In this document: positions 40,218 through 61,446 of the stretch, piece by piece
Layout of the letters: the number at the start of each line of letters is the position of its first letter
How positions within the stretch are numbered: the first letter of the stretch is position 1
Assembly (NCBI GenBank): GCA_021372515.1
Contig: JAJFUG010000180.1
Span: 64,240-128,239 of the forward strand
DNA from: a bacterium
GTDB taxonomy: Bacteria; Gemmatimonadota; Glassbacteria; GWA2-58-10
Length of the DNA stretch: 64,000 nt
Direction: 5' to 3'
Program-made: the position numbers and the translations under genes
The notes under the pieces: model-generated
What the model was told of the DNA's origin: nothing
Databases searched by the model: none
Seen by the model: the letters and a program-made list of their open reading frames with translations, nothing else

Positions 40218-40264
40218 CGATTTCTCCGTCTGTTTGGGGGGCTGTTTCCTGTAATCAAATATAA

Positions 40265-45006: not shown

Positions 45007-45723
45007 ATGCTGGCTGATGATTTAACAATCAGAAGTTTGTTCGACTCTGTCCTCTGGCTGCTGGAACAAACCAGCGTGCCGGCCCTACTCGTTGATTACC
45101 GCGGCAAGATAATAACAGCCAACACCCCTTTTCTTAGCGTGACAAAATTCCAGGAGGAGGAACTCCTGGGGAAAAGGTGCAGGGAATTGGAAGTAATTGA
45201 AGATTTGGTGGAAATACAAAGACGGAAAAAATATCTGAAATCACAAATAGGGCACTACCACGGGTACTCAATCATTATCGACCGGGACAAAAAGGAATTT
45301 TTCTGCCGACTCAGTATCGATAAAGTCGCCTGCGATAGCGCCGCCTACTATCTGAAGCAGTTCCAAATGATGAACCACAACAAAATTGAGGAATTCAAAG
45401 ACCTTGTAAAAATACGCAATACTATTGAAGAAAATCTCCAGGAAATCAGGGATGTATTTGTCCTGGCTCGCGTGGTGCGGATGGATTACCGCAGGATCCT
45501 GTTTCTGATGAAGGAGTTTGAGGGGGTCACTCCCAAGCGTTACCTGACCGGCGTGCGCTTGAGACGCTGTCTCGAACTGATAGAGGCTTCGAGCAAGACT
45601 CAGAAGGAGATCGCTTTCGAGCTCGGTTTCTGCGATGTCTCCCACCTGTGCAATGTCTTCAAAGACAGCATGAAAATGACGATTACCGAATACCTGAAAA
45701 CAAACTGCTGCCAGAACGGTTGA
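45007..45723 (+). CDS. AraC/XylS-family transcriptional regulator with an N-terminal sensory (PAS-like) domain
   Basis: C-terminal dual HTH RYLTGVRLRRCLELIEASSKTQKEIAFELGFCDVSHLCNVFKDSMKMTITEY. Low-GC gene in a divergent arrangement with the sensor gene across a 300-bp AT-rich spacer. Confidence 0.8.
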   Translation: MLADDLTIRSLFDSVLWLLEQTSVPALLVDYRGKIITANTPFLSVTKFQEEELLGKRCRELEVIEDLVEIQRRKKYLKSQIGHYHGYSIIIDRDKKEFFCRLSIDKVACDSAAYYLKQFQMMNHNKIEEFKDLVKIRNTIEENLQEIRDVFVLARVVRMDYRRILFLMKEFEGVTPKRYLTGVRLRRCLELIEASSKTQKEIAFELGFCDVSHLCNVFKDSMKMTITEYLKTNCCQNG

Positions 45724-45761
45724 TTCCATATTCCCCCAATCCCCTCCCTGGGAGGTACGAG

Positions 45762-46427
45762 ATGTTAAGAACAATCCTCGTTACTCTGTTGTTTGTCTTA
45801 CCAGCCTCCTTGATGTCGGCAGATGGAGTGAAATATCAGAAAATTACGCAGGGCGACTGGGCGGTGGTGCTGGTCCGGGGCCTCAATCTGGATGCAAACA
45901 AGCCGCTCGAAAAGGTGCAGGATTTCACCAAATTACTCGAAAAAGTCCAAATTGTGCCCCAGGACGGTTGGAAGATCGACCGGATGATTACGGAAAGCGA
46001 TTATCTGGGGACTCTGGGAAAAGCCCTGATTTATCTGAACTCGCAGAAAGTCGACAAGAAGCAGGCGGAATTCGACCGGTTCTTCGCTTTCCTCGAGGAT
46101 AAAGTCGGCCTCGATCTTTCCCAGCTGCTTGCTCTGCTGCCCAGGAATGGCAATCTGCAGAACCTGACGGATGGTCTGGCGAACTACATCTCCTCCAAAA
46201 CCGGTGCTTCAGGGAGTGACACCCGGCCGGGTGCTGAAAGTACCGCCTCCGGCACGAAGAGCAAGATCACGGGTGGCGGGAACAGCGGTCCCGGCCTGGC
46301 TGCGGTATCCAGCCCGGTGGCCAGCCTGGCCGCGGCGCTGACTGCATACGCGCCCGGACCCGGACCCTCGAACCCTGATTACTGGAATATTTTCTCCAAG
46401 CCGGCAAGCCCGATACTGCCGAATTAG
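45762..46427 (+). CDS. Secreted hypothetical protein (signal peptide; Gly/Ser/Pro-rich C-terminus)
   Basis: MLRTILVTLLFVLPASLMSA signal peptide. RBS gggaggt 5 nt upstream of the ATG. No recognisable domain. Confidence 0.55.
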   Translation: MLRTILVTLLFVLPASLMSADGVKYQKITQGDWAVVLVRGLNLDANKPLEKVQDFTKLLEKVQIVPQDGWKIDRMITESDYLGTLGKALIYLNSQKVDKKQAEFDRFFAFLEDKVGLDLSQLLALLPRNGNLQNLTDGLANYISSKTGASGSDTRPGAESTASGTKSKITGGGNSGPGLAAVSSPVASLAAALTAYAPGPGPSNPDYWNIFSKPASPILPN

Positions 46428-46476
46428 GGTGAGCTTGGGTCGATTTCTTTCCTGAATCCTGAATGGAGGTAGATCC

Positions 46477-48990
46477 ATGTTGCGTTATGTCAGGAAACTG
46501 TTGCCGGCGCTTGTTTTCGCTTTCACACCGATGGTCCTGAACGCCCAGCCGGCTGTTATCCCCCTGCTGCCGGATGACAATGCCGAGCATGTCGCCTTTA
46601 CGAAACAGAGTTTCGATGCGTTGCTACAGAAAAGCAAATCCCTGTCAGACCAGAAGATGCCCAATCTGGCCTCTGGAATCAATTCCATGAGCCATGAGGC
46701 GGCCCTCAAAGCGGCGGTCGATTATTTGCTCGCCGCCCGCGTGAATGTCGGCGGCTCGTTCAGCGAGGGCGCCTTGCCCACCGGCGGCAGCGGGTTGACC
46801 AAGGCCTGGCCTTATTCGGCCGGCGGCACAGTCGCGGCCAGAAGCACTTACGGCGAGATCGGCCTGGCCCTGCTCTATGCCTGGGACCATTCCGGCAACA
46901 GTACGACTTTACAGAACGCGATCAAGTCGATGGCCGACGAGATGGTGAACGACTACACGGTGAAAAGCGGCCCGATCTCCGGGACCACCAAGCCATTCAT
47001 GACCGATGTATTGTTCCTTCTGAAAGTGTCCGAGTCCGGCTTCTCCGGGACATCAACCTACGGGGACATCGCCGCGACCCTTTTCGAAAGGCTGCGGTCG
47101 GCCAGACCGGCGGCCAGCGACGAGGTGGACAGAATAGTCACCGCCAGGACAACCCAGGGAGCAAAAGAACTGTCCGGCTACGACATCGCCTGGCTGTACC
47201 TGGCGGCAAGCAGTATCGGCAGCTCCAGCAAAGTGACCGGCGGGGCGGTCAAGACCAACGCCGCGGCTTACGCTGCTGCCGTCCGGACTGCGTACAACGG
47301 CCTGGGGGGAAGCTGGGAAGTCAACGGGGCTGGCTCGACCAACGCCCAGGTCCGCACCAGCACCGGCAACATGCTCAGCCGCGGCCTGCTGGCTCTGGCC
47401 GGTCTGGGGGACAGCGGCTTGTCGGTTTTCCTGACTGCGTCCCAGGAAACCTCCGCGGGCGCCAATTACGGGGCTTTCATGCCGGCCGGTAACGTCCAGA
47501 GCAACGGCTACATCATCGCGGCTCTCAGAAAACCTGGATGCTCCATCGGCGCTTACCGCGGTTGCAAGTACCTGCTTGAGTATCAGAACACGGACGGGTC
47601 CTGGTACAGCTATCCCCTGACCTCCAACACCGACATCTACCCGAGTGAAGTAGCTGCGGCGTTGAGCGGCCTGGCCAACGCGGCCTATGTCGTCTCTGTC
47701 TCGGGGATCAAGGACCGCGAGGGCAGCACGAGTCTTTCCCGCATTCCGGTCGTGCTGAAAAACGAGGACGGGGACACCGCCTACAAGGTCACCAGTAACG
47801 GCGCCGCCGAATTCTACGCCGTGCTGGACACCAACCTCATAATGTCTTTCCCCGTGAGCACAGCTCTCAGTAACGCCTTGAAAGGCATTGTAATAACCTC
47901 GACCGATGCCTCCTATATCCTGGAGCAGGCGGTCAAGTCTCCGCCTTTCGGTACGGATTCCCCGAATTACGGGACCGGCTCCATTGCCTTGCAGGCGGCC
48001 AACCTCGCCAAGAGCACCTCTTTCACGGGCGGCAGCGTCAACAGCCAGATCGCGGCCGAGATACTGCGTTTCAGTGTCGGCCTCAGCTCGCAGTACCCGC
48101 CGATCTATTTCGATCTGAGCATGCTGGACGGCGCATCGCTGAAAGACACTCTGCGCGTTTTGTACGACCATTCTGGAACGATGAATTTCACGGCAGCCAA
48201 GAATTTCGTACTGCGCGGCGACATCACCAACAGCATGAAAACCTCAGGCGGTCTGCCCTCCACCTCGACCCTGCTGGCTTCCGCCGGAGCGGTGGAGTCG
48301 CCGTTCCGCCTGGCCCTGGACAACCTCGGCGTCCAGTCCGGCAGTCTGAGCCTCCAGGTGAGAGTGGCCGGCATCAGCTCATCGGACAAGGGCCCCCGGG
48401 CGTTCCAGTACCTGGTCACCTATGATCCGAGTCTCGTGAAGTACAACGGGCTCGAGCTGTCGGCCGAGGCCGCCGGTTTCATGTACGCGGTCAACGATTC
48501 CGAACCCGGCCGGCTCAGGATCGCCATGGCGGGCGGGATCCCCCTGCGGGCCGACTGCGTGATCGCCTCGCTCCGGTTTGTCCCTCTCGGTACAGGCGTT
48601 GCGCCGATATTCGGTCTAAACAGTGTCATGATCGAGGATAAGATCGCGGATGTCGAGAGCGCGGTCTATTCGGCTCTCCAGGCCGATGCGGCTTACCTGC
48701 CCAAGGCGTTCAGCCTGTCGCAGAACCAGCCCAACCCGTTCAACCCGTCCACCACGATCAGCTACACCATCCCGGAGGGGGCGGAGCCGCTCAAGGTGAA
48801 CCTCTCCGTGTTCAACATGCGTGGGCAACTGGTCAACTGTCTGGTCGACCGGGACCAGGCGGCCGGGACCTATTCCGTGAACTGGGACGGCCGTGGCAGT
48901 GACGGCCGCAGCGTTGCCTCGGGGGTCTATTTCTATCGGATACAGGCAGGAAAATACTCTCAGGTCAGGAAGATGATCATCCTGAAGTAA
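46477..48990 (+). CDS. Secreted alpha/alpha-toroid (prenyltransferase / squalene-cyclase-like repeat) protein with a cohesin-like beta-sandwich and a T9SS type-A C-terminal sorting domain
   Basis: Signal MLRYVRKLLPALVFAFTPMVLNAQP. Repeats such as GCKYLLEYQNTDGSWYSYPL and AVDYLLAARVNVGGSF. Cohesin-like module LSLQVRVAGISSSDKGPRAFQYLVTYDPSLVKYNGLEL...RLRIAMAGGIPLRADCVIASLRFVPL. CTD (48706-48987) AFSLSQNQPNPFNPSTTISYTIPEG...VFNMRGQLV...WDGRGSDGRSVASGVYFYRIQAG matches TIGR04183-type sorting domains. Confidence 0.7.
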   Translation: MLRYVRKLLPALVFAFTPMVLNAQPAVIPLLPDDNAEHVAFTKQSFDALLQKSKSLSDQKMPNLASGINSMSHEAALKAAVDYLLAARVNVGGSFSEGALPTGGSGLTKAWPYSAGGTVAARSTYGEIGLALLYAWDHSGNSTTLQNAIKSMADEMVNDYTVKSGPISGTTKPFMTDVLFLLKVSESGFSGTSTYGDIAATLFERLRSARPAASDEVDRIVTARTTQGAKELSGYDIAWLYLAASSIGSSSKVTGGAVKTNAAAYAAAVRTAYNGLGGSWEVNGAGSTNAQVRTSTGNMLSRGLLALAGLGDSGLSVFLTASQETSAGANYGAFMPAGNVQSNGYIIAALRKPGCSIGAYRGCKYLLEYQNTDGSWYSYPLTSNTDIYPSEVAAALSGLANAAYVVSVSGIKDREGSTSLSRIPVVLKNEDGDTAYKVTSNGAAEFYAVLDTNLIMSFPVSTALSNALKGIVITSTDASYILEQAVKSPPFGTDSPNYGTGSIALQAANLAKSTSFTGGSVNSQIAAEILRFSVGLSSQYPPIYFDLSMLDGASLKDTLRVLYDHSGTMNFTAAKNFVLRGDITNSMKTSGGLPSTSTLLASAGAVESPFRLALDNLGVQSGSLSLQVRVAGISSSDKGPRAFQYLVTYDPSLVKYNGLELSAEAAGFMYAVNDSEPGRLRIAMAGGIPLRADCVIASLRFVPLGTGVAPIFGLNSVMIEDKIADVESAVYSALQADAAYLPKAFSLSQNQPNPFNPSTTISYTIPEGAEPLKVNLSVFNMRGQLVNCLVDRDQAAGTYSVNWDGRGSDGRSVASGVYFYRIQAGKYSQVRKMIILK

Positions 48991-49026
48991 TTATTCCTGA
49001 ATGGTCCACGATAGAGGAGACTTCCT

Positions 49027-52000
49027 ATGTTGATAAAATCGAAGTTGCTGCAGCTTTCGACCTTCCTGGCGGTGTTCCTTTTCACCGGTTTTGCCTACGG
49101 GCAGGTGAGTCTGCGGGTGGTGGACATACCCGCGGCGGCGAACGGGACAACCATCGGGGTGGTCGTAAAAGTCGGCCCGGCCAGCGGAGTATCCTCCGCG
49201 GACATCTGGCTGACCTATGACAACACGAAGCTGAGCCCGACCGGGACGGTGAGCAAAGGCGTCCAATTCGGCAATTTCAGCATCGTGTCCTCCACCGAGG
49301 CCGCGAGCGAGGTCCGGGTGGCGATGGCCGGAAGCACTCCGGTCAACGTCGGCAGCGAATCGGACCTTATCACAGTCTATTTCAACGTGCTGACAGGCAG
49401 CGGCTCGACCACGGTCGACTTCAGCAAGAACCTGCTGAACGGGACGAACCTCACCACCACCACACAGTCCGGGACTGTCACCTTTACCGCGCTGCCGGCG
49501 GTGAACCTGTCCGTGCAGGATTATCCGAACGCAGCCTACCAATCGGTGATCGGGATCCCGGTCAAGATCGGCGCCTACAACGACATCTCATCGGCGGATA
49601 TCTGGCTCGTTTACGATCCGGCGAAGTTGCAGCCGACCGGCACTGTAAACCGGGGAGCCTCTTTCCAGGCGTTCTCCCTGTCCTCCTCGACCGCCAATTC
49701 AGGCGAGGTCAGAGTGGCCATGGCCGGCTCCAGCCCGGTCAATATCACGGCGGCGTCAGACCTGATTGTCGTGTACTTCAAGGTCCTGCAAGCCAGCGGG
49801 ACGGCGAGCATAGGTTTCAGCAAGAACCTTGTCAACGGCGGGAATTTCCCCACGAACGTGACCTCCGGAACAGTCAGTTTCGTCTCCCAGTCGACGAGCT
49901 TCACTCTCCCGATCAAGGTGGCAAACCCGGGTGAAACGGTCTCGGTCGATATTTCGGCGCCATCGGTGACCGGGGTCAGAGGCATCGATGTCTGGATCAG
50001 CTACGACCCGGCCGTGCTCGCTCCGGCGAGCGCCTCGCTGGCGAGTGAACTGTCCGCGGCCGGTTTCTCCCTCCAGAGCAACCTTTCCGGCGCCGGTCTG
50101 GCCAAGCTGGCCCTGGCTGTCGGAACTCCGGCCACGATCAGTGGGACCGTGGCTACGATAGCTTTCACGGTTGTCGGCGCCGGAGGGCAAAGCACAGCGC
50201 TGGGTTTCAACCGGTTGAACATCAACGAGGGCGGCATCCAGGCCACGACACAGAACGGAAGCGTTGCGATCAACCGGGCGCCAGTGCTGTCGGAGATCGG
50301 GAATAAAAGTGCAGTGACCGGCACGCCGCTGACATTCAGCCTCCAGGCCACGGACCCCGACGGGGACGGGATCGTCTTTTCGGCGACCGGCCTGCCGACC
50401 GGCGCGACTCTGAATACTGAAACCGGGGAGTTCAGCTGGACACCGTCCGCGACCGGTACGTTCAATATCACTTTTAAGGCCACGGACATTCACGGAATTG
50501 AAGACAGCGAGACGATCAGTGTCAGCGTGAGCCAGGCGCATGTCAATCAGGCCCCGGTGCTCAGCACCGAGGGTGTGCCCACATCCACCTCCGTGACTGT
50601 TGGTGGCAATGTCAATTATACGTTTGTCGCCACGGACCCGGACAGTGATCCGGTAAGTTATCAGTCCAGCGACTTGCCGGCTGGGGCAAGCCTGAACTCC
50701 GGCACTGGCTTGTTCAGCTGGACCCCCACGGCCGCCGGGACTGCGAGCATCACTTTCTGGGCCACTGACGGGAGCTTGAACTCCAACACCCACACCCTGA
50801 CAATAACTGTCAACGCCGGCGCCGTCCCCCCACCGCCTCCTCCGCCGGTAAACACTCCACCGGTTCTGAACCCCATACAGAACCGCAGTGTCGCGGCAGG
50901 TGATGTGGTCAGCATTCTGGCCCAGGCCACCGATGCGAACGGGGACCAGCTCACCTATGCCTTGAGCGGCAATGTTCTGAGCGCAATTCCCGCCCCGGTC
51001 TTCAACACCGCTACCGGACAGTTCACCTGGTCGACCACTGCGGCCACTATCGGTGGTATCTACCAGGCGACAGTCACGGTGAGCGACGGACACGGAGGAG
51101 TGGTAAGCCGAAGCTTCACAATAACAGTTGCGGGCGTGAACCATCCCCCGGTTCTCGGGACGTTGAACAACGTGACTGTGAACCAGGGACAGGTGGTCTC
51201 TTTCACTGTTACGGCCACGGACCCGGACGGCGACCCGCTGACATTGAGCGCCAGCGGAGCGCCGTTGACCGCCACTCCCGCGGCCTCTTTCAACGCTGCG
51301 ACGGGCCAGTTCTCCTGGGCCACCAGCCAGGCGATACAGGGGAATTTCACCCTGACATTCACGGCCTCGGACGGTAAAGGCGGAGTGGCGACAAAGAGTA
51401 TCACTGTCACCGTAGGTTCGGTCAACCGTCCACCCGTGCTCAACCCTATCGGCGGCAAGACCGTGGTCGAGCGTGAAACCCTCGAATTCAACGTGTCGGC
51501 CAGCGACCCGGATGCCGGGGCTCAGCTTCTGATTACCACAACGCCGCTGCCCACGGGTGCGACATTCTCGTACAACGTGGCCACGCACTCTGGACAGTTC
51601 CGGTTCGCCCCGGTCCTGGGGCAGGCCGGAACGTACCCGGTGACATTTACGGTCAGCGACGGGCAACTGGCGGCCACGGAAACAATACAGATCACGGTGA
51701 CCCAGGCCTCGGTGCCGCCGGTTATCGCCACCATCGGTAACCGGACTGTCAATGTGGGCCAGCGCCTGGCTTTCCAGATCACCGCAACCGACCCCGCCGG
51801 CCGGTCCACGGTGAGCCTGAGCCTGAGCGGGCTGCCCTCTGGTGCGTCTTTCGATCCTGCGACCGGTCTGTTCTCGTTCACTCCGACCCAGGCCGGAGCC
51901 TCCACCGTGACCGTTACGGCCACCGGCGGCGGCGGGGCGACAAGCACCCAGACGTTCACCGTTACGGCCGTAGGGGTGAACAGACCGCCGGTATTCACCC

Positions 52001-55000
52001 CCCTGGCTGCCCAGTCGGTCAACACCGGCGCGGCGCTTCAGTTTACGGTGCAGGCGACCGATCCTGACGGTGACCCGGTTACCCTGTCCGCCACCGGCTC
52101 TCCCCTCCAGAGCCTGGGGGCCTCTTTCAACCCGGCCAGCGGTGGATTTTCCTGGACCCCGGCCGCCGGGACACAGGGTAACTACCGGGTGGATTTCAGC
52201 GCCGTGGACGACAAGGGCGGGAACAGCCGGATGACGCTCACTATCACGGTGGGCTCGGTGAACCGTCCTCCCGCCCTGTCCGATGTAACGAACAGGCAGG
52301 TGAACGCCGGTCTGCCACTGATCGTAACTTTCACGGCCTCGGACCCGGACGGCAACCCGCTCACTTTGAGCACCCCGGTGCGCCCGGCCGGCTCTGTGGT
52401 CACTTTCAGCGCAGGCAGCGGCTCTTTCAACTGGACGCCGACCTCGGACCAGGTCGGCACGCACGATGTGACTCTTATTGTAAGCGACGGCAGCCTGACC
52501 GCGGAAAAGAAATTCACCATCACCGTACTGAAAACCAACCATCCGCCGACCATGGCGCCGCTGGGCAACCGTACGGTCTCCGAGGGGGGGCGGCTGGATA
52601 TTAATGTATTGGCCAGCGATCCGGACAACGACCCGCTGCTGTATTTCGCGACCGGCATACCGGAGGGGGCGACTTTCGACGCATCCACCGGCCTGTTCAC
52701 TTTCAAGCCGACATACGATCAGGCCGGCTCCTACACGGTCAATTTCAAGGTCTCCGACGCGGACGGGCTGAGCGCGAACCAGAACGTCCAGATTCAGGTC
52801 AAGGACTTCAACCGTCCGCCGGTTTTCGGAACTCTGGGCAACCAGACCGTCGAGGTGGGCAAGCTGCTCGAGGTGATGGTTAGCGCCAGCGACCCGGACA
52901 ACGACGTGCTGACTTTCAGCGCCAGAGTCCCGTCCGGGGCCGCGTTTGACGCGCAGACCAGGGTGCTGCGGTGGATACCGGGCGCCCAGGACGCCGGCAC
53001 CCGTCAGGCCACTTTCAGCGTGAGCGACGGCAAGGGGGAGAGCGTCACCCGTAACATCTCCATTTCCGTGACCACTCCCAACATCGTGCTCAACCGCCCG
53101 CCGCTGATCGATCCGGTCGGGGCGCAGGTGGTGGAGGCCGGCCAGAGCCTGAGCTTCAGTGTCAGCGCCAGCGACCCGGAGCAATCCAAGGTCATCCTGA
53201 CCGCGAGCGGGGTCCCGGCAGGCGCTTCGTTCACCAGCTCTACCGGGGCTTTCAAGTTTACGCCCACCTACCTGCAGGCCGGCAGCTACAGCGTGACATT
53301 CACCGCCAGTGACGGACAGTTGACCGCCTCGCTTCCGGTGGCGATAACTGTAGTGCGCAGTCTCAACAGCGCCCCGGTGCTCAGCGGTGTCTCCAACCGC
53401 GAGGTCCAGGCGGGCCAGAGCCTGACTTTCGTGGTCAGCGCCTCCGATCCCGAGGGGGACCAGTTCACCCTCGGCGCGCGCAACCTGCCTCCGGGTGCGG
53501 TGTTCAACCCCGGCAACGGGACATTTACATATTCTCCGACCATGGAGCAGGCGGGCAGCTACAATGTCTCGTTCCTGGCTACGGATTTCCTGGGGGCTTC
53601 CTCGGAAAAATCGATGACCCTCTCGGTCAGGGCGGTGAACCGTCCGCCGGAGTTTGTCCGCTCCGGCAATATCGCCGCCGCTGTCGGGCAACTGATCGAA
53701 CTGATCGTCACAGCCAACGATCCTGACGGCGACCCCCTGGTCTACAGCTCGTCCAGCGCAGCGGCGCTGGGAGCCGCGTTCGATACGCAGTCGCACATCC
53801 TGAAATGGACCCCGGCCACGCCGGGGACGTTCGGCGTCAATTTCAAGGTCGAGGACGGACGGGGCGGCAGCGCGGTGCAGACAGTGCTGATCGCTGTGAG
53901 TTCTCCGACAGTCAAGCTCAACCTTTCGCCGAAATTCGAGCCTCTGCAGAACTATGTCCTGAACGCAGGCGGCAGCCTTTCCTTTACGGTGAACGCCAGC
54001 GACCCGGACGGAGACAACCTGGTGTTCGGCATAACCAAGGCCCCGGCCAATGCGTCTTTCAACTCCACTACCCGCACTTTCTCCTTCAACCCCGATCTCA
54101 GCCAGAGCGGTGTTTTCAAGCCGGTTTTCACGGTGAGCGACGGCAAGCTGACCGATCAAGTGTCGGCCGAGATCGAAGTCAAAGCCGTCAACCGGGCGCC
54201 GGTGCTGAGCGGCATACCTGACCGTAGCGTACCCGAGGCCGGGAAGCTGAGCTTCTTCGTCAACGCTTTCGATCCGGACAGCGATCCCCTCGTGCGGACC
54301 GCCGACAACCTGCCGGAGAACGCGGGATTCAACCCGCAGAGCGGGCGTTTTTCGTTTTCACCGGCGGTTGGGCAGGCCGGTTCTTACACTGTCAGGTTCT
54401 TTGCCATCGACCCGAAGGGAGCCTCAGACACGGTCACGGTCAGCATCCAGGTGCTGCAGGTCAATCTCCCGCCGGCTCTCGGTTTCCTGAGCAATCTTGA
54501 GGTGACTGCGGGTGAGCTGGCCGAGATAGTCCTTTCCGCCAGCGACCCCAACGACCCTCTGGCCGACCTGGTGTTCAGTGCTTCCGGCCTGCCGCAGGGG
54601 GCCGTGTTCAGCGCCGCGGACCGCTCGTTCCGCTGGACGCCTGAAGTCACTCAGATCGGCAATTTCCGAGTCTCTTTCGCAGTCACCGACCCGGCCGGGC
54701 TCAAGGACGAGAAAGACATCAAGATCACGGTCAAGGATCCGGCGCGCTTTGTCGACAGCCCGCCGGTCCTCGCTTCTGTCGGCGACAGAACGGTGGAGGA
54801 GGGCAGCGCCCTGAGCTTCACTGTAACGGCCACTGACCCGGACCCGGGCAGCACTGTCACCCTGACCGCCCGGAATCTGCCAAATGGGGCGGCTTTCAGT
54901 TCCGCACCCGGGGCGTCGAGCGCCAGCGGCACATTCAGTTTCACCCCGACCATGCTGCAGGCAGGTAGCTACAACGTGGTGTTCAGAGCAAGTGACGGGG

Positions 55001-58000
55001 ATTTCATCAATGAAGAGACAGTTACGATAACGGTGACCGAGCTGGATGTCGCCCCTGTGATCAGCGTGTCCCCAAGCCAGACCGCGGCAGTGGGACAGAC
55101 GCTGAGCATCAAGGTGGACGGCAGCGACGCCAGCGGAGAGCCGGTGGTCCTGTCCGTCCAGAACTCGCCGATGAACTCGCTGTTCCTGACCTCCGCAGGG
55201 CGTTTCGCTTTTACTCCGAGCCTGGAGCAGGCGGGCCAGAGCTTCCCGGTCACCTTCCGGGTGACGGATGCCTCGGGCGGGTATGCCGAAGCGACCTGCA
55301 ACATCAGCGTCAGCGCGCTCAACGTGGCGCCCGAGCTGCGGCGGATACCACCCCTGGCGATAAGTGAGGGCGGGTTGCTGGAGTTCTCGGTCGTGGCGGA
55401 TGACCGCAACGGCGACGTGCTGACCTATTCAGCGGGCAACCTGCCCACCGGCGCGAGTTTTGACGCGGCGGTGGGAATTTTCCGCTGGATGCCTGCGGCT
55501 GGATCGGCGGGCAACTACAGTGTCAGCTTCAGCGCCGCCGACCCGGCCGGTCTTTCGGACAGCCGCTCGGTCTCCATCACGGTCGGGTCGGTCAACCGGC
55601 CGCCGATGCTGTCCGACCCCGGGCCGCAGTCGGCCGCCGAGGGCCAGGTCCTGGGCTTCCAGGTGAGCGCCAGCGACCCGGACGGCAACCCTGTCACCCT
55701 GAGCGCATCCGGCCTGCCCGCGGGTGCGACTTTCAGCGATAACGGCAACGGCTCGGGCAGTTTCTCCTGGGCCACCACCTACCGCAGCAACGGCAGCTAC
55801 CAGGTGGTGTTCTCCGCCTCGGATGGGAGTCTTTCGGATCAGTTGAGAGTGCCGATTACCATCCAGGACGTGAATCTGCCGCCGACGCTCGACTTGGCTG
55901 GAGGGACCCTGCTCGCCGCAGCCGGGATGAAATTCAGGCACGTGGAGGAAGGTATCCGGCTGGCGGCTGACGTGAACGATGTCCAGACCTTCACCGTGAA
56001 AGAGGGTGAGCAGGTCCGGGTCGGGATAAAGGTGGAGGACCCCGGCGGCGACCTGCTCGCGGTAGCGGTCAGGAACCTGCCGGCCAACGCCTCGCTGGGC
56101 CCGGACGGAATGAGCATCCTGTTCGCTCCGGATTACGACCAGGCCGGCGATTACCTCGTGCTGATCGAGGTGTCGGACGGCGTGTTCACGGTCAGCCGCT
56201 ACGCAGCTTTCAAGGTGGAGGACGTCAACCGTCCGCCCGTGCTGCGTCCTGTCGGCGAGCGCTACGTCCAGGAAGGGATGCTCATATCGTTCGAGATCAA
56301 CGCCTACGACCCGGACGGCGACCCGATCACCTACGCTTTCTCAGGGTTGCCGGGAGTGGCGACGCTGGTCAACAACCTGTTCACCTTCGATACGAGGCTC
56401 CTGCCAGCCCGCCAGCCGGTGGATGCAGTGTATTTCCTGTTCCGGGCTTTCGACGGACGGGGGGGATCGGACTGGGTCGGCCAGGACATCGCGATCATCC
56501 GGCCGTATACGGTGGGCCTGGGCGGCACCCAGCTCGCCGCGGCTGTCTCGCCCGGGGACTCGATCCCCTTGCAGATGCGGGAGGGGATAGGGATCCAGAT
56601 GGCCCTGGTTAACAGCGGCTCCGGCACCTACAACACCACCGGCAGCATTCAGGTCAGCGAGATTTCCGGACCGCTCACCGAGGATGTGATCAAAAACCTG
56701 CAAGGCGGTGGAAGTTCACTCCTGGCGGTGGCGGCCTCCGGCGGCGGAAAGTCCAAGCTGACAGCGGCGGTGACCCCGATACAGCTTTCCGCCGGGGGTG
56801 AGTCCGGGTTCTTCAGCATCCGGCGCGGCTGGAGTGTGGACCTGGGCGGTTTCAGCCTGACCGGGCAGGCCCGGCCGGGGGTCAACGACAGTATTTACCT
56901 GTACCTCGGCTTCGCCTTCCAGGACAGCGACCTGGTGACCCAGGACCCCGATCTGAACGGCGCTTTCGGGACCCGGATGTCCATCGCCGCCTGGGACAGC
57001 GTGCTGGGCAAGTTCGTCCTGCTCGAAGGGGTGGTCGACACCCTGCTGAACAGAGTGAGGCTCAGTATTCCTCTGGAAGTGGATACGAGCCGGACAGCGC
57101 TGTCCGCTTTCGGGCCGATCGATCTGCCGCGTTCGGTCCCCAGACCGCGCTACAAGTACTTCACGGCCGGTGCGGTGCTGGATTATACCCCGCCGTCGGT
57201 CGAGGTCCAGAGCAAGAGCTTCGTGACCTCCAGGACCGAGCCGTACACAATCCTGGCCAAGATATCCGACGATCTGACCGGGATCGCGCGGGTCGACCTG
57301 ATCTACACTATCGCCGAACAGACCGATACCGTCGGGATGGAACAGGTCTCCGGCGTCTACCAGGGTGAAATTCCTGGCCAGCCGATTGGCGCCAACATCT
57401 CATACTACGTCGAGGCGATTGACCGTGACGGCAACGTGTCCCGCGAGCCGAAGGTCTCGGGGTACCTGCTCAACGTGAGCGAGTTGGGGCCGACGGACCT
57501 GGACGGCAACGGCAAGGTGGACGTCTTCGACCTGCTGGTCCTGCTGCGGGCTCTGACGAGCCACGAAGACCGGGACGTGAACGGTGACGGCAAGACCGAC
57601 ATCTGGGACCTTCTGGTGCTGCTGAAAGTGCTGTCCGGCAAAGTGCAGACCGCCCTGTCGGGCCAGCCCGCCGGATTGGAGCAGATGCTCAACCCGTCCG
57701 GGAAGACGGCTCCCGAATACAAGGACGATTTCGGGGTCCGGATCGACGAGGCGGCGCAGGCGGCTGTAGCCCGGATCGTTCTGGAGGTTTCGCCGGAGGT
57801 TGGATTGGGCCAGGTGACAGTCGCCCCGGCGGCCAAGGGCTGGCAGGTCGTAACCTCCAGGGAGGGCGACCGGCTCACGCTGCTGGTGTTCAGTCTGGAC
57901 GGGGCGCCCCTGGCAGGCGGGACGCTGGTCAACGTGGATTATCTGCTGGGTAAGGGCGAACGGCTGAACGAGAGCCATGTCAGGCTGCAGGAAATCCTCG

Positions 58001-58350
58001 TCCTGAACGCCGAGGGACAGACGCTCAAAGCCGGGGTCAGTCTCGACGGCGTGGCTGCCCTGCCGCGGGCTTTCAGCCTGGAGCAGAACTGCCCGAACCC
58101 GTTCAACCCCTCGACCAGCATCAGTTTCAGCCTGCCCGAGGGCCCGCAGGTCCAGGTCCGGCTGAGCGTGTACAACCTGAGAGGCCAATTGCTGAAGGTC
58201 CTGGTCAATGAGACCCGCGATCCGGGAAGTTACCAGGTCACCTGGGACGGCCGGGACGAGCGGGGACGGGCAGCGCCCTCAGGGGTCTATTTCTATCGAA
58301 TGGAGGCGGGGGATTTTGCCAGGATGCGTAAGATGATCCTTCTCAAATAG
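49027..58350 (+). CDS. Giant (3107-aa) cell-surface scaffoldin/adhesin-like protein: signal peptide, 3 cohesin-like modules, about 22 He_PIG/cadherin-like Ig repeats, unknown beta-rich region, type-I dockerin, and T9SS type-A C-terminal sorting domain
   Basis: Signal MLIKSKLLQLSTFLAVFLFTGFAYGQ with an aggagga RBS. Three modules each carry the cohesin hallmarks (IWLTYDNTKLSPTG...VRVAMAGSTPVNVGSESDLITVYFNV). Repeats of about 95 aa run NRPPVL...TDPDGDPLTLSASGLP.GASF...TG.FSWTP...G.Y.VTF.VSDG. Dockerin DLDGNGKVDVFDLLVLLRAL...DVNGDGKTDIWDLLVLLKVL. The CTD FSLEQNCPNPFNPSTSISFSLPEG...VYNLRGQLL...WDGRDERGRAAPSGVYFYRMEAG is nearly identical in architecture to the CTD of the upstream gene. Confidence 0.8.
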   Translation: MLIKSKLLQLSTFLAVFLFTGFAYGQVSLRVVDIPAAANGTTIGVVVKVGPASGVSSADIWLTYDNTKLSPTGTVSKGVQFGNFSIVSSTEAASEVRVAMAGSTPVNVGSESDLITVYFNVLTGSGSTTVDFSKNLLNGTNLTTTTQSGTVTFTALPAVNLSVQDYPNAAYQSVIGIPVKIGAYNDISSADIWLVYDPAKLQPTGTVNRGASFQAFSLSSSTANSGEVRVAMAGSSPVNITAASDLIVVYFKVLQASGTASIGFSKNLVNGGNFPTNVTSGTVSFVSQSTSFTLPIKVANPGETVSVDISAPSVTGVRGIDVWISYDPAVLAPASASLASELSAAGFSLQSNLSGAGLAKLALAVGTPATISGTVATIAFTVVGAGGQSTALGFNRLNINEGGIQATTQNGSVAINRAPVLSEIGNKSAVTGTPLTFSLQATDPDGDGIVFSATGLPTGATLNTETGEFSWTPSATGTFNITFKATDIHGIEDSETISVSVSQAHVNQAPVLSTEGVPTSTSVTVGGNVNYTFVATDPDSDPVSYQSSDLPAGASLNSGTGLFSWTPTAAGTASITFWATDGSLNSNTHTLTITVNAGAVPPPPPPPVNTPPVLNPIQNRSVAAGDVVSILAQATDANGDQLTYALSGNVLSAIPAPVFNTATGQFTWSTTAATIGGIYQATVTVSDGHGGVVSRSFTITVAGVNHPPVLGTLNNVTVNQGQVVSFTVTATDPDGDPLTLSASGAPLTATPAASFNAATGQFSWATSQAIQGNFTLTFTASDGKGGVATKSITVTVGSVNRPPVLNPIGGKTVVERETLEFNVSASDPDAGAQLLITTTPLPTGATFSYNVATHSGQFRFAPVLGQAGTYPVTFTVSDGQLAATETIQITVTQASVPPVIATIGNRTVNVGQRLAFQITATDPAGRSTVSLSLSGLPSGASFDPATGLFSFTPTQAGASTVTVTATGGGGATSTQTFTVTAVGVNRPPVFTPLAAQSVNTGAALQFTVQATDPDGDPVTLSATGSPLQSLGASFNPASGGFSWTPAAGTQGNYRVDFSAVDDKGGNSRMTLTITVGSVNRPPALSDVTNRQVNAGLPLIVTFTASDPDGNPLTLSTPVRPAGSVVTFSAGSGSFNWTPTSDQVGTHDVTLIVSDGSLTAEKKFTITVLKTNHPPTMAPLGNRTVSEGGRLDINVLASDPDNDPLLYFATGIPEGATFDASTGLFTFKPTYDQAGSYTVNFKVSDADGLSANQNVQIQVKDFNRPPVFGTLGNQTVEVGKLLEVMVSASDPDNDVLTFSARVPSGAAFDAQTRVLRWIPGAQDAGTRQATFSVSDGKGESVTRNISISVTTPNIVLNRPPLIDPVGAQVVEAGQSLSFSVSASDPEQSKVILTASGVPAGASFTSSTGAFKFTPTYLQAGSYSVTFTASDGQLTASLPVAITVVRSLNSAPVLSGVSNREVQAGQSLTFVVSASDPEGDQFTLGARNLPPGAVFNPGNGTFTYSPTMEQAGSYNVSFLATDFLGASSEKSMTLSVRAVNRPPEFVRSGNIAAAVGQLIELIVTANDPDGDPLVYSSSSAAALGAAFDTQSHILKWTPATPGTFGVNFKVEDGRGGSAVQTVLIAVSSPTVKLNLSPKFEPLQNYVLNAGGSLSFTVNASDPDGDNLVFGITKAPANASFNSTTRTFSFNPDLSQSGVFKPVFTVSDGKLTDQVSAEIEVKAVNRAPVLSGIPDRSVPEAGKLSFFVNAFDPDSDPLVRTADNLPENAGFNPQSGRFSFSPAVGQAGSYTVRFFAIDPKGASDTVTVSIQVLQVNLPPALGFLSNLEVTAGELAEIVLSASDPNDPLADLVFSASGLPQGAVFSAADRSFRWTPEVTQIGNFRVSFAVTDPAGLKDEKDIKITVKDPARFVDSPPVLASVGDRTVEEGSALSFTVTATDPDPGSTVTLTARNLPNGAAFSSAPGASSASGTFSFTPTMLQAGSYNVVFRASDGDFINEETVTITVTELDVAPVISVSPSQTAAVGQTLSIKVDGSDASGEPVVLSVQNSPMNSLFLTSAGRFAFTPSLEQAGQSFPVTFRVTDASGGYAEATCNISVSALNVAPELRRIPPLAISEGGLLEFSVVADDRNGDVLTYSAGNLPTGASFDAAVGIFRWMPAAGSAGNYSVSFSAADPAGLSDSRSVSITVGSVNRPPMLSDPGPQSAAEGQVLGFQVSASDPDGNPVTLSASGLPAGATFSDNGNGSGSFSWATTYRSNGSYQVVFSASDGSLSDQLRVPITIQDVNLPPTLDLAGGTLLAAAGMKFRHVEEGIRLAADVNDVQTFTVKEGEQVRVGIKVEDPGGDLLAVAVRNLPANASLGPDGMSILFAPDYDQAGDYLVLIEVSDGVFTVSRYAAFKVEDVNRPPVLRPVGERYVQEGMLISFEINAYDPDGDPITYAFSGLPGVATLVNNLFTFDTRLLPARQPVDAVYFLFRAFDGRGGSDWVGQDIAIIRPYTVGLGGTQLAAAVSPGDSIPLQMREGIGIQMALVNSGSGTYNTTGSIQVSEISGPLTEDVIKNLQGGGSSLLAVAASGGGKSKLTAAVTPIQLSAGGESGFFSIRRGWSVDLGGFSLTGQARPGVNDSIYLYLGFAFQDSDLVTQDPDLNGAFGTRMSIAAWDSVLGKFVLLEGVVDTLLNRVRLSIPLEVDTSRTALSAFGPIDLPRSVPRPRYKYFTAGAVLDYTPPSVEVQSKSFVTSRTEPYTILAKISDDLTGIARVDLIYTIAEQTDTVGMEQVSGVYQGEIPGQPIGANISYYVEAIDRDGNVSREPKVSGYLLNVSELGPTDLDGNGKVDVFDLLVLLRALTSHEDRDVNGDGKTDIWDLLVLLKVLSGKVQTALSGQPAGLEQMLNPSGKTAPEYKDDFGVRIDEAAQAAVARIVLEVSPEVGLGQVTVAPAAKGWQVVTSREGDRLTLLVFSLDGAPLAGGTLVNVDYLLGKGERLNESHVRLQEILVLNAEGQTLKAGVSLDGVAALPRAFSLEQNCPNPFNPSTSISFSLPEGPQVQVRLSVYNLRGQLLKVLVNETRDPGSYQVTWDGRDERGRAAPSGVYFYRMEAGDFARMRKMILLK
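49100..50270 (+). other. Three tandem cohesin-like modules (N-terminal region of the giant protein)
   Basis: Each module of about 130 aa has V.L.V....A..G..I.V.VK.G......S.DIWL.YD...L.PTG and a (S/A)(D/E)(A/S)GEVRVAMAGS.PVN...SDLI.VYF.VL pattern, typical of the cohesin beta-sandwich. Confidence 0.55.
50273..56515 (+). repeat. Array of about 22 tandem protein-level repeats (about 285 nt each) encoding He_PIG/cadherin-like (dystroglycan-type) Ig domains
   Basis: Repeats start with N(R/H/L)(P/A)P(V/A/T)L and contain (S/T)A(S/T)DPDGD(P)L...G.P.GA(S/T)F.....G.F.WTP....G.Y.V.F.(V/A)SDG. They are divergent at the nucleotide level. Confidence 0.7.
57496..57639 (+). other. Type-I dockerin module (two Ca-binding EF-hand-like repeats) within the giant protein
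   Basis: DLDGNGKVDVFDLLVLLRALTSHEDRDVNGDGKTDIWDLLVLLKVLSG has two D.(D/N)G(N/D)GK.D repeats, each followed by a DLL.LL helix. Confidence 0.7.
58069..58347 (+). other. T9SS type-A (FlgD-Ig-like, TIGR04183-type) C-terminal sorting domain of the giant protein
   Basis: AFSLEQNCPNPFNPSTSISFSLPEGPQVQVRLSVYNLRGQLLKVLVNETRDPGSYQVTWDGRDERGRAAPSGVYFYRMEAGDFARMRKMILLK. Confidence 0.75.
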
Positions 58351-58555: not shown

Positions 58556-59791
58556 ATGACAATGCCGGAAAGAATAAAAAGAATACTGGTTCTGACAGTT
58601 GTTCTGGCGCTGGCCGCGGTGGTCCCGGCGGACCGTCTCCAGGCGGCTTTCCAGGTCCCGGCGGCAAAAACGGCCGGAATAAGCTCCAATTTCTATGTGG
58701 GGACTCTGCTGGGCTACAATGACAACCTTTTTCTGGACAGCACGGACACCCAGGCGGTTTTCAGCCAGCACCTGGTGCCGCATTTCGACCTGGACTACCG
58801 CACGCGGCGGCTCAGCGTGAACCTGGACTACACGGGCGATTACAGCTGGTACAGTGCGGGCGGGGACAGGACCAAGAACGCCCTGCACTACACGCGTCTC
58901 GGGTCTGACTGGAACTGGCACCGTGACCTGAGCCTGCAGTTCTTCGGCGACCTCAGCGAGCGGCCCATCGACCTGACCAAGGGTGGAGGGGTGCTGACCT
59001 CGGCCTTGAACGTAGGCGGTTTTTTCCGGCCCCCGGCGATCAACAGCGTCCTGACCCGCACTGTCGGGCTGGGCCAGCACTATTTCCGGCGGCTGAACAG
59101 CCGGCTGCAGCTGGAGGCCTCCTACGGCGCGAGCGACATGCAGACCGACCGGAAATACGGGCGGGATGTGTTCCAGCACGGGGCTTCCGGCAAGTTGCTT
59201 TACACCTGGAGCAAGCGGCTGGACCTGGCCCTGCGTTTCGCCGTGCAGAACCAGAACTACGAGGGCGGCATCCGGCGGCGTAATTCCAGCCTGGTGCTGG
59301 AGGCTGACTATGCCATCACCCCGCGCACCTCTCTTTTCGGGGCGGCCGGGGTGGAGGACCTGAAACTGCGGAACCCCGGGCCAGGCCTGAGAGCGGGCAA
59401 CGCCCGGGCCTACCTGGAGGCCGGGGTGAGTTTCGACCGGATCCCGCGCACGAGCCTGGCCCTGTCCGTCAGCCGGCGGCTGCTGTCCGACATCAGCGCC
59501 AACCTGTACACCTTGACCGAGGTCGCTGTCCGGGCCAACCACGAGTTGAGCCGTCGGGTCGAGCTGTCCGGGGCGCTCTACTCCAGGAGCCTGTCCCTGG
59601 ACCAGGTGGAGCAGCGGCTGAACGATTACATCCTCGGCTCCGAGTTACAGATCACCTATCGCATCTCGCGGGACCTGCAGCCGATGGTGAACCTCAACTA
59701 TGTGGTCAACGCCGGGGAGTTCCGGCCGAACGATTTCGCCAATTTCCGCCTGAACACCGGGCTACGCTACTACTTCTTTGCCCTCAACTGA
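58556..59791 (+). CDS. Outer-membrane beta-barrel protein associated with the polysaccharide-export locus
   Basis: Signal MTMPERIKRILVLTVVLALAAVVP. Alternating amphipathic beta-strand pattern and a C-terminal aromatic-rich strand LRYYFFALN. Sits directly upstream of the PHP phosphatase, wza and wzc. Confidence 0.55.
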   Translation: MTMPERIKRILVLTVVLALAAVVPADRLQAAFQVPAAKTAGISSNFYVGTLLGYNDNLFLDSTDTQAVFSQHLVPHFDLDYRTRRLSVNLDYTGDYSWYSAGGDRTKNALHYTRLGSDWNWHRDLSLQFFGDLSERPIDLTKGGGVLTSALNVGGFFRPPAINSVLTRTVGLGQHYFRRLNSRLQLEASYGASDMQTDRKYGRDVFQHGASGKLLYTWSKRLDLALRFAVQNQNYEGGIRRRNSSLVLEADYAITPRTSLFGAAGVEDLKLRNPGPGLRAGNARAYLEAGVSFDRIPRTSLALSVSRRLLSDISANLYTLTEVAVRANHELSRRVELSGALYSRSLSLDQVEQRLNDYILGSELQITYRISRDLQPMVNLNYVVNAGEFRPNDFANFRLNTGLRYYFFALN

Positions 59792-59840
59792 GGGAGTTGG
59801 AGAACCGCCTCTCCATCGACCGGAACTGCAAGGGAACATT

Positions 59841-60437
59841 ATGGAACTGAAGGCCGATCTGCACATCCACTCCGAGTACTCCTTCGACTGCCGTCTGAAG
59901 CTGGAAGAGATCGCCAGGCAGGCTGTCCGGCGGGGCCTCGATATCGTGGCCGTGACCGACCACGGCACTCTGGAAGGCAGCCTGAGGCTGCGTGAGCAGG
60001 TCGCCTCCAGTGGCGCCGGGCTTCAGGTGGTGGTAGGCTGTGAGATAACGACCGAGGCGGGCGATATCCTGGGGCTTTTTCTGGAGCGGGAGATCCGTTC
60101 AAGCCGTGCACTCGATGTCATCGCGGAGATAAAAGACATGGGCGGCGTGAGCGTCCTGGCCCACCCATACCGGGCCGGTGAGCCCTCCCGTGACGTGCTG
60201 GAGGCGGTGGATGCAGTCGAGATCTACAACGGCCGCAGCAGCAAGGTCCAAAACTATCTGGCGCAGGTGCTGGCCCTGCGGCTACAGAAACCGGGGCTTT
60301 CGGGCAGCGACGCCCATGTGCCGGATGAGGTCGGCTGCGCCTACACTCTTCTGGATGATATGCCGGAAATCGGAAAGGCCTCATTCAAGGGGTGCGAACT
60401 CCTTAACAGTTGCCTGGGAGTGAGGCTGAATGTTTAG
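59841..60437 (+). CDS. PHP-domain phosphoesterase, likely CpsB/YwqE-type Mn-dependent protein-tyrosine phosphatase partner of the BY-kinase
   Basis: ADLHIHSEYSFDCRLKLEEIARQAVRRGLDIVAVTDHGTL carries PHP motif I/II histidines; later HPYR and GSDAHV motifs. The track ORF starts further upstream at 59778; ATG at 59841 is chosen. Context with Wza and Wzc. Confidence 0.65.
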   Translation: MELKADLHIHSEYSFDCRLKLEEIARQAVRRGLDIVAVTDHGTLEGSLRLREQVASSGAGLQVVVGCEITTEAGDILGLFLEREIRSSRALDVIAEIKDMGGVSVLAHPYRAGEPSRDVLEAVDAVEIYNGRSSKVQNYLAQVLALRLQKPGLSGSDAHVPDEVGCAYTLLDDMPEIGKASFKGCELLNSCLGVRLNV

Positions 60438-61425
60438 AGTGTACTCTCGGATAAGGTCCGCTGCGGGCCGGATGGAGCGCCGGATCATGAGAATTTCCCT
60501 CGATCGGCCTGGATTGTCGCGCCGGACTGGGCAATGTATCCGCCTGGTTGTCTGCCTGATCCTGTGCAGCCTCGCAACCCCTGTTCTGACTGTTGCGGCC
60601 GGTGAGCCCTCAGGTTCGGATGCCTACGTTCTGGGGGTGGGGGACATCCTGCACATCACGGTCCTGGATGAGCCGGACCTGACCGGCAGTTTCCAGGTCT
60701 CCTCGGCCGGCAACATCAGCTACCCTTTCCTGGGCAACCTGCCGGTCAAAGGCCTGACCGTCGAGGAACTCGACCAGTACCTGGTGCTGAAACTGAGCCA
60801 GGACTACCTGGTCAACCCGGTGGTGACAGTCAGCGTGGAGAGCTACCAGAGCAAGAAAGTCTATGTCCAGGGCGAGGTGGCCAAGCCGGGGGTCTATTAC
60901 CTCAAGGAGCGCACCGGGGTGCTGAACCTTCTGCTGGAATCCGGCGGCACCACCCGGGACGCCTCGGAGGAGATCGTCATCCTGCGCTCCGCGGGCGGCT
61001 CTCACGGCGGAAGCGACTCCGCCTCGGCCGAGGATTTCGAGCAGATACACATCAACCTCAAGGAACTGCTGAGCGGCGACCAGAGCCAGAACGTGCAGGT
61101 GCAAAATGGGGACATCCTGTACGTGGCCAATGCCAGCGGCGGGCAGTTCCGGACCGAGGGCCGCTTCGTCAACATCATGGGCGAGGTGAAAAAGCCCGGC
61201 AACTACGATTACCGCCTGGGTCTGACTGTCCTGAACGCGATCCTCGAAGCCGGCGGGTTCACCGAGTACGCAGCCAAGAACAAGGTCAAGGTCATAAAGA
61301 AAGTGGGAGACAAGCAGAAAGTCCTGATCGCCAGGCTGGACGACCTGGTCAAGAGCGGCAGTCTGGAAGAGGACATGCTGCTCGACCCGGGCGACCTGGT
61401 GGTGGTTCCGCAGAGCCTGTTCTAA
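60430..61425 (+). CDS. wza: Polysaccharide export protein Wza/KpsD family (Poly_export plus SLBB domains)
   Basis: YVLGVGDILHITVLDEPDLTGSFQVSSAGNISYPFLGNLPVKGLTVEEL is the Poly_export motif, followed by two SLBB-like segments. Alternative ATG starts at 60472 and 60487 give a cleaner signal peptide. Confidence 0.8.
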   Translation: MFRVYSRIRSAAGRMERRIMRISLDRPGLSRRTGQCIRLVVCLILCSLATPVLTVAAGEPSGSDAYVLGVGDILHITVLDEPDLTGSFQVSSAGNISYPFLGNLPVKGLTVEELDQYLVLKLSQDYLVNPVVTVSVESYQSKKVYVQGEVAKPGVYYLKERTGVLNLLLESGGTTRDASEEIVILRSAGGSHGGSDSASAEDFEQIHINLKELLSGDQSQNVQVQNGDILYVANASGGQFRTEGRFVNIMGEVKKPGNYDYRLGLTVLNAILEAGGFTEYAAKNKVKVIKKVGDKQKVLIARLDDLVKSGSLEEDMLLDPGDLVVVPQSLF

Positions 61426-61446
61426 CCCTTGCACGGGATAGGGGTC

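Follow-up and report, generated by a model that had tools for sequence, protein, structure and literature searches.

What does a secreted helical toroid do beside a giant cohesin-bearing protein in an uncultured Gram-negative bacterium? The question is raised by the open reading frame (ORF) 46477-48990 of a 64,000-nucleotide stretch of DNA (hereafter the window; assembly GCA_021372515.1, contig JAJFUG010000180.1, positions 64,240 to 128,239), on the plus strand, as are the genes described below from the PAS-AraC regulator (45007) to Wzc (63432). The ORF, which was judged real, encodes an 837-aa protein, to which NCBI gives the accession MCE5272952.1 and the label "T9SS type A sorting domain-containing protein [bacterium]", and 36 bases downstream begins the ORF of a 3107-aa scaffoldin-like adhesin (49027..58350, the giant). 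A reading made from the sequence alone, called here the sequence-only reading, had proposed the two as a cognate cohesin-dockerin pair. We find that the 837-aa protein (the partner) consists, in this order, of a Sec signal peptide, an alpha/alpha toroid, a putative small beta-sandwich, a degenerate dockerin-like module, a cohesin and a type-A C-terminal sorting domain (CTD) of the T9SS (type IX secretion system). The explanation that we favour, to which we give about even chances, is a cohesin-dockerin surface assembly displayed by the T9SS, in which the toroid is a head that binds or trims exopolysaccharide (EPS).

The family of the partner was exposed by an exhaustive HMMER search with residues 1-745 against 1.84 billion cluster representatives; word-indexed homologue searches were either swamped by CTD matches or nearly empty. 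Only two full-length members were recovered beyond the partner itself (P0002, 44% identity, and P0017, 41%), together with a few fragments and one relative in which the domains are shuffled (P0020/P0021). No new lineage came out of two pattern scans of genome contigs and one of metagenomes. The toroid family is very rare, with four lineages among about 15 billion proteins.

Secretion of the partner, proposed earlier, is borne out at both ends of the protein. Residues 1-23 (46477..46545) read by eye as a Sec-type signal peptide, MLRYVRKLLPALVFAFTPMVLNA followed by Q, with a basic n-region, a hydrophobic core and a cleavage site between LNA and Q. The type-A CTD covers residues ~743-837 and the stop codon (48703..48990); at its extreme C-terminus, residues 752-835 exceed the cutoffs of TIGR04183 (35 bits, cutoff 23) and PF18962 (28.7 bits, cutoff 27) and match FlgD_ig (E 1.4e-9). 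This is the only domain that single-sequence scans with hidden Markov models (HMMs) detect in the partner. The partner and the giant had been said to carry nearly the same CTD. The identity is real (58% over 99 aa, E 8e-35, BLASTP), but it is generic rather than specific to the pair because 48-67% is the norm in the identity matrix of all cargo of the lineage, one unrelated cargo protein of the relative L002 reaching 54-57%. Directly after the signal peptide, a conserved N-terminal segment (residues 24-71, 46546..46689) carries the motif PLLPxD...VAFTxxSF, positions of which are invariant across P0002, P0017 and the fragments P0021, P0022 and P0025.

Residues ~72-405 (46690..47691) form an (alpha/alpha)6-type toroid, with the motif QNTDGSWY at residues 370-377. 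Single-sequence Pfam and NCBIfam scans of the toroid and of the mid-region of the partner gave no match. AlphaFold2 (AF2) modelling and the profile search both used A2, a 14-sequence alignment restricted to the toroid of the family and its remote relatives; A2 replaced a multi-domain alignment (A3), which was dropped since remote toroid and beta-sandwich segments were misaligned in it. The AF2 model of residues 56-410 contains 13 helices (predicted local distance difference test score, pLDDT, 84.4; predicted template-modelling score, pTM, 0.87). Its good Foldseek matches in the PDB are all (alpha/alpha)6 barrels, namely the glycoside hydrolase (GH) families GH76 (an alpha-1,6-mannanase), GH9, GH105 and GH88, as well as MmpH and AprG. 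Against PDB sequences, the A2 profile matched squalene-hopene cyclase (SHC; 1gsz, E 9e-27) in four repeat-like stretches, a pectate lyase of polysaccharide lyase (PL) family PL10 (E 4e-5), GH76 (E 0.026) and, marginally, the thioester domains (TEDs) of TEP1 and C4 (E 0.16-0.27). Weak SQHop_cyclase Pfam matches were also seen in remote toroid relatives. As fold and superfamily, the toroid is a member of the terpenoid-cyclase/prenyltransferase/six-hairpin superfamily; the alpha/alpha toroid with squalene-cyclase-like repeats, noticed earlier in the sequence, is confirmed by the AF2 barrel and by the SHC match. Literature on secreted SHC-like or dockerin-linked toroids, or on PDB entry 8X39, yielded nothing useful.

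Could the toroid then be an isoprenoid enzyme (a class II terpene cyclase or a prenyltransferase), or a thioester protease trap of the alpha2-macroglobulin (A2M) TED type, as the sequence-only reading had also considered? We regard this as highly improbable, even though the profile resembles SHC and, marginally, the TEP1 and C4 domains. The similarity to SHC sits mainly in repeated QW-like helix-capping motifs, with its best stretch at profile positions 231-293 of 327, and Foldseek prefers glycoside-hydrolase barrels. Motif searches of the partner for D.DD and C.EQ found neither the DxDD nor the CxEQ thioester motif, Pfam gave no A2M or MG match, and the protein is exported and carries a surface-sorting CTD. 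With class II terpene cyclases the toroid shares the alpha/alpha barrel built on QW-type repeats (AF2 and profile), but it is a single barrel of ~335 residues, versus their two-barrel (beta-gamma) architecture. The missing DxDD and the single barrel rule out a class II terpene cyclase, and the missing CxEQ, the lack of macroglobulin domains and the marginal E-values of the TED matches leave the A2M/TED-like fold unsupported.

Other features of the toroid are compatible with a carbohydrate ligand. Residues W111, D177, R224, D236, W280 and E391 are invariant from the family out to relatives that have only the toroid, and a set made up of carboxylates, an arginine and tryptophans could plausibly bind or cleave a sugar. 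In the comparison with glycoside hydrolases, D177, D236 and E391 are conserved, alongside a fold match of TM ~0.5 and the GH76 sequence match at E 0.026.

The partner had further been credited with a cohesin-like module of its own, and this proved correct. A full-length Pfam scan of the partner found no Cohesin match, and the module (residues ~601-742, 48277..48702) was identified by profile homology to solved cohesins: A7, a four-sequence profile of the family, matches 5nrk_A (E 3.6e-5) and 5nrm_A (E 4.8e-5), as well as 4ums and 6kg8. About 50 phmmer matches cover residues 577-707, and all ten that were scanned carry Pfam Cohesin; residues 620-707 are 31% identical to the third N-terminal cohesin of the giant (E 2e-5, BLASTP). 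Profile, phmmer and BLASTP matches thus agree on cohesin similarity at residues ~610-740. As regards the nine-stranded jelly-roll beta-sandwich of cohesins, the full-length AF2 model, made from a two-sequence alignment, is of low confidence (pLDDT 36.8 overall and 50-60 in the cohesin region), and its 23 best Foldseek matches in the PDB are all cohesins (E from 2.3e-4, TM 0.4-0.6, root-mean-square deviation 3-5 A). On this combined profile and alignment evidence the module is accepted as a cohesin homologue, which we call P-type. That the two proteins share this module is true of the N-terminal cohesins of the giant but not of its C-terminal cohesin-like module, to which hhalign detected no similarity (probability 0.7%).

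The region between toroid and cohesin turned out to be part of a recurrent arrangement. Residues ~406-468 (47692..47880) would form a small beta-sandwich, CarboxypepD_reg-like by eye. Its strands are seen in the low-confidence full-length model; the partner itself has no HMM match here, and in P0036 and P0038 the dockerin is preceded by a CarboxypepD_reg domain. Next come a degenerate, dockerin-derived two-helix module (residues ~469-540, 47881..48096; ITSTDASYILEQAV ... AANLAKSTSFTGGSVNSQIAAEILRFSVG), assigned by transitive profile homology, and a linker ending in an LxGDIxN motif (residues 541-600, 48097..48276) that belongs to a dockerin-cohesin supermodule. Remote matches often start about 25 residues ahead of the cohesin, with a dockerin just upstream, and alignment reveals the order beta-sandwich, dockerin, "WxFxP...LLMGEVSGNW" linker and cohesin as a supermodule that recurs in at least a dozen unrelated proteins (P0031, P0032, P0038, P0039, P0042, P0051 and others). 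Residues ~469-600 of the partner align with it (MAFFT), ITSTDASYILEQAV and GGSVNSQIAAEILRFSVG falling on the dockerin helices and LRGDITN on the linker motif. The L, G, D, I and N of the linker are invariant in the family and align with LLMGEVSGNW of the remote modules.

When the family block A8 was compared by hhalign with the dockerin-cohesin supermodule A9, a probability of 94% was obtained (E 1e-7, 96 columns). A9, members of which carry Pfam Dockerin_1, in turn matches solved dockerins with E 1e-11 to 5e-5 (8x39, E 1e-11; 1ohz_B, E 2e-5), while no dockerin of PDB or Pfam was matched directly by A8. The regular expression for the F-hand Ca-binding loop (D-x-[DN]-x-[DN]-G-x-x-x-x-x-D) has no match in the partner, where the aligned loop positions read AANLAKSTSFTGGS in place of AADVSGNG. 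Many positions of the dockerin-derived helices (D, A, S, L ... Q, I, E, I, L, F) are invariant in the family. By this transitive route, the helices of residues 469-540 appear homologous to dockerin helices 1 and 3, the Ca-binding loops having been lost. The earlier statement that the single dockerin lies in the giant stands for canonical dockerins; it had overlooked the degenerate module of the partner.

The giant was analyzed with Pfam, a local cohesin HMM and the F-hand expression. Its Pfam content comprises three N-terminal cohesins, about 20 He_PIG/Big_9 immunoglobulin (Ig) repeats, a sub-threshold dockerin and a CTD of the same kind as that of the partner (nt ~58054-58347). The N-terminal cohesins (nt ~49135-50202; Pfam and local cohesin HMM) are two of A-type and one of B-type. 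Tandem A-type cohesins are present in two copies in the window and in the relative L001 and in four copies in L002 (8168-10150), where they are up to 94% identical, and such copy-number variation is typical of scaffoldins. In full-length alignments, types P, A and B are mutually 23-35% identical and each is conserved across lineages; P-type orthologues are 32-51% identical to one another and only 23-33% identical to the cohesins of the giant. The canonical dockerin (residues 2823-2867, nt 57493-57627), recognised by the F-hand expression and a PDB match, has its F-hand loops DLDGNGKVDVFD and DVNGDGKTDIWD at residues 2824-2835 and 2850-2861 and is the only canonical dockerin in the window. This stretch matches 5lxv_B (E 4e-4) and the NagH dockerin (E 0.011). 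A weak cohesin-like module follows the dockerin (nt ~57694-58062); it was found with a profile of the tail, which matches the NagJ cohesin (E 0.008). NagH dockerin and NagJ cohesin, each matched weakly (E ~0.01), bind each other in the solved 2OZN complex, and the resemblance hints at a self-association of the giant tail.

Co-occurrence of the gene pair in related genomes was then examined. Both relatives with sufficient flanking sequence keep the partner and giant genes together: L001 has an orthologue of a 221-aa secreted protein, the partner and the N-terminus of a giant with three cohesins, and L002/L007 has an AraC regulator, a 246-aa protein, the partner and a 3095-aa giant with five cohesins. 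The L002 giant is 47% identical to that of the window over its full length. In a further lineage, L003, the two are fused. There, the genes run in the order PAS kinase, PAS-AraC, 227-aa protein, toroid gene, beta-barrel, Wza, Wzy_C-TPR, PHP and glycosyltransferases, and the cassette contains neither a giant gene nor a partner-type cohesin. The C-terminal 400 residues of the L003 toroid gene product are a giant-type tail (Ig-like domain, canonical dockerin, cohesin-like module and CTD) that is 38% identical to giant residues 2712-3107; the fusion joins the equivalents of partner residues 211-391 and giant residues 2712-3107. The gene (9394-11821) is split by one extra T near 9997 (GGC[T]GAG), which may be an assembly error or the mark of a recent pseudogene. 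With this T removed, it encodes a continuous protein of ~808 aa composed of toroid and giant-type tail. The fusion of the toroid to a giant-type tail in L003 ties partner and giant together in function, and it shows that tails of either type can serve interchangeably to carry the toroid.

The conserved cassette consists of a PAS-AraC regulator, the 221-aa secreted protein, the toroid protein and the giant cohesin/Ig-repeat/dockerin protein. At its head in the window, the PAS-AraC transcriptional regulator (45007..45723; Pfam HTH_18, E 1.4e-14, and PAS_9) has orthologues at the corresponding place of the L002 and L003 loci (36% identity). The 221-aa hypothetical protein (MCE5272951.1, 45762..46427) has orthologues 38-46% identical in L001, L002, L003 and L007 and an invariant C-terminal DYWxxFSxPASPxxPN, and its gene lies directly upstream of the toroid gene in four of four lineages. 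It has no Pfam or NCBIfam match, and comparison with the TonB_2 neighbours of the toroid-only relatives showed it to be unrelated to them; it is a candidate for a third component. Tight intergenic gaps (36-49 nt), the lack of terminator-like sites between 45007 and 58350 and the clustering of promoter-like sites at 44823-44920, upstream of the AraC gene only, suggest that 45007-58350 forms one operon.

In the window as in L003, the cassette is followed by an EPS export locus. An outer-membrane beta-barrel (58556..59791) resembles TIGR03016, a PEP-CTERM-system-associated outer-membrane protein (E 1.4e-10, below cutoff), and Porin_4 (E 2e-4); its L003 orthologue, 39% identical, is encoded directly after the toroid gene. 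The export block proper (59778..63432) encodes a PHP phosphatase (59778-60437; Pfam; 51% identical to the L003 gene), Wza (60430-61425; Pfam; TIGR03027, 173 bits with the cutoff at 180; 68% identical to the L003 gene) and the tyrosine autokinase Wzc (61429-63432; Pfam; TIGR01007, 188 bits). In L005, Wzx, Wzc and Wzy_C-TPR genes surround the toroid-only relative P0030, so that the toroid is linked to EPS genes in three separate contexts (window, L003 and L005). A second toroid-only relative, P0048, has a TonB_2 neighbour as P0030 does and adjoins a TPR-rich protein; after the gene of each (P0030, L005 8001-9847; P0048, L004 1517-3492) comes a TonB_2/TonB_C-like gene in convergent orientation. 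The export genes of the window resemble XrtA/PEP-CTERM-type loci in their TIGR03016-like outer-membrane protein, near-cutoff TIGR03027 Wza and TIGR03018/03007-like Wzc, and the surface proteins encoded beside them carry T9SS CTDs, not PEP-CTERM anchors.

How might these parts work together? Type-A cargo of the T9SS generally loses its CTD and is tethered to the outer membrane. In the explanation that we favour, the T9SS would export both large proteins, their CTDs would be cleaved off, and partner and giant would become tethered to the outer membrane. Contacts of the cohesin-dockerin type would then join the two on the surface into a long scaffold spaced by Ig repeats. The toroid would be the working end, binding or trimming the EPS made by the adjacent Wza/Wzc/Wzy-type locus, or alternatively it would serve as a lectin-like anchor for that polymer. 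EPS loci are known to encode glycanases that serve their own polymers, such as BcsZ (GH8) and AlgL (PL5). Genomic context and fold suggest both that the EPS of the locus is what the toroid binds or modifies and that the cohesin, dockerin and CTD modules place it on the cell surface with the giant scaffold. A bolder form of this explanation holds that the toroid founds an unrecognised EPS-active family (a glycanase or lyase, or a polymer-anchoring lectin), mounted via cohesin-dockerin contacts on a T9SS-displayed giant as a Gram-negative, matrix-building counterpart of the cellulosome at a PEP-CTERM-like EPS locus; to this we assign only a small chance.

A number of observations weigh against the favoured explanation. 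The dockerin-like module of the partner lacks Ca-binding loops and is detected only transitively. Two modules score below Pfam gathering thresholds, the partner cohesin (residues 601-745) reaching 18.1 of 24.1 bits for Cohesin PF00963 (E 0.0033) and the giant dockerin 19.4 of 22.9 bits for Dockerin_1. The toroid has no close structural neighbour, its best Foldseek match in the PDB being at TM ~0.5 and E 2.5e-3. Linkage to EPS genes is not universal, as the cassette retained in L002 is followed by HD-domain genes instead, and for the toroid-only relatives the link is drawn from only two short contigs that possibly represent one lineage.

Several cohesin-dockerin pairings are possible because the system contains three cohesin types, a weak fourth module and a NagH/NagJ-like tail. 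The sequence-only reading had favoured a dedicated two-protein pair, in which the cohesin of the partner would be the cognate receptor of the canonical dockerin of the giant, so that the giant would dock onto the partner or the other way round. This agrees with the adjacency of the two genes and its conservation, with the location of the window's only canonical F-hand dockerin in the giant and with the separate conservation of the P-type cohesin, which is compatible with a dedicated specificity. However, the L003 cassette has a canonical dockerin without any P-type cohesin, four other cohesin or cohesin-like modules would compete as receptors, and the match between the CTDs is generic; we hold such a dedicated pair to be rather unlikely. 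The pairing could also run in the opposite sense, the three to five N-terminal cohesins of the giant being loaded, as in a scaffoldin, with several toroid proteins through their divergent dockerin-like module. The Ca-binding loops of that module are lost, direct searches do not detect it as a dockerin, and L003 retains the toroid with neither giant nor dockerin-like module. In spite of a variable number of A-type copies (two versus four), as in scaffoldins, and of the many invariant residues in helices homologous to those of real dockerins, we judge this arrangement improbable.

Finally, the tandem of dockerin and cohesin might involve no heterotypic pairing at all and be a self-contained cassette for a stalk or for self-association, intramolecular or head-to-tail, with gene adjacency reflecting co-regulation only. 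The extra N-terminal cohesins of the giant, of two conserved types, would then be left unexplained, and the NagH/NagJ matches on which part of the argument depends are marginal. Conversely, unrelated proteins, at least a dozen of them, carry the supermodule, both partner and giant end in a dockerin or dockerin-like module, a cohesin or cohesin-like module and a CTD, the tails are swapped on the toroid in L003, and the giant dockerin and its adjacent tail module weakly match both halves of the NagH-NagJ complex. We retain a self-contained cassette as a minority possibility. If the T9SS-displayed surface assembly is correct, an uncultured Gram-negative bacterium would be using a cohesin-dockerin assembly for its own EPS matrix, not for biomass degradation, and the range of functions served by such systems would widen. 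A first role would also be provided for the widespread, unannotated secreted squalene-cyclase-like toroids encoded beside Wzx/Wzy/Wzc loci. The natural fusion of L003 and the three conserved cohesin types offer concrete and cheap material for binding experiments.

Further observations concern the surroundings of the cassette. A low-GC island (40000-46000, 46-48% versus 60-66% elsewhere) holds regulators only, namely a 1192-aa PAS/GAF sensor on the minus strand (41130-44708) and the PAS-AraC gene (45007-45723). In L002 and L003 the cassette is flanked by related PAS/AraC regulators. In composition the regulators of the island contrast with the structural genes that they presumably control. Genes of the GH92 alpha-mannosidase and GH20 hexosaminidase families are located at 29889-34678, about 12 kb upstream of the cassette, and a MacAB/HlyD/TolC efflux unit with a TetR regulator (34822-40292) lies between them and the cassette. 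Besides the GH92 and GH20 genes and the MacAB-TolC/TetR unit, what remains of the window holds common chromosomal genes (hrcA, dnaJ, mutS2, dnaG, rpoD, recJ, nusA, infB, truB, ribF, pnp and ksgA).

Cohesin and dockerin modules outside cellulosomes are well known; they were reportedly described by Peer et al. in 2009. The nearest comparison is with the Cloacimonadota, for which cohesin scaffoldins or cellulosome-like assemblies with T9SS CTDs have been proposed from metagenome-assembled genomes of 'Ca. Stygibacter' (PMC8542988). Both systems have a large multi-cohesin scaffold that bears a CTD, and cohesins or dockerins on secreted proteins with T9SS sorting domains of the Fibrobacteres-Chlorobi-Bacteroidetes (FCB) type in an uncultured Gram-negative organism. 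They differ in that the "subunit" described here has a cohesin and a degenerate dockerin instead of a C-terminal canonical dockerin, that the only canonical dockerin is borne by the scaffold, that no carbohydrate-binding module or recognisable carbohydrate-active enzyme is present, and that the context is EPS export, not polymer degradation. With the SHC/prenyltransferase barrels (SQHop_cyclase_N/C, six-hairpin clan) the toroid shares a helical ring and repeated Q..DG(S/G)W helix-capping motifs; unlike them it lacks DxDD, is a single exported barrel of ~335 residues and has no toroid Pfam match. The (alpha/alpha)6 hydrolases and lyases (GH76, GH9, GH88/GH105, PL10) provide the best Foldseek matches and weak profile matches, and the placing of the toroid gene at an EPS locus would, by analogy, recall BcsZ and AlgL. 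At TM ~0.5 and 10-15% identity, however, the link to these enzymes is one of analogy by fold and context. The dockerin of the giant and the module next to it match, marginally, the two partners of the Clostridium perfringens NagH-NagJ toxin complex (2OZN), but here both modules are in one polypeptide, and organism and secretion route differ. Every building block was already known, and we present the finding as a lead, not a discovery. What is new is their combination: a rare toroid family, a tail made of degenerate dockerin plus cohesin, a scaffold with the sole canonical dockerin, the L003 fusion and the setting in an EPS locus.

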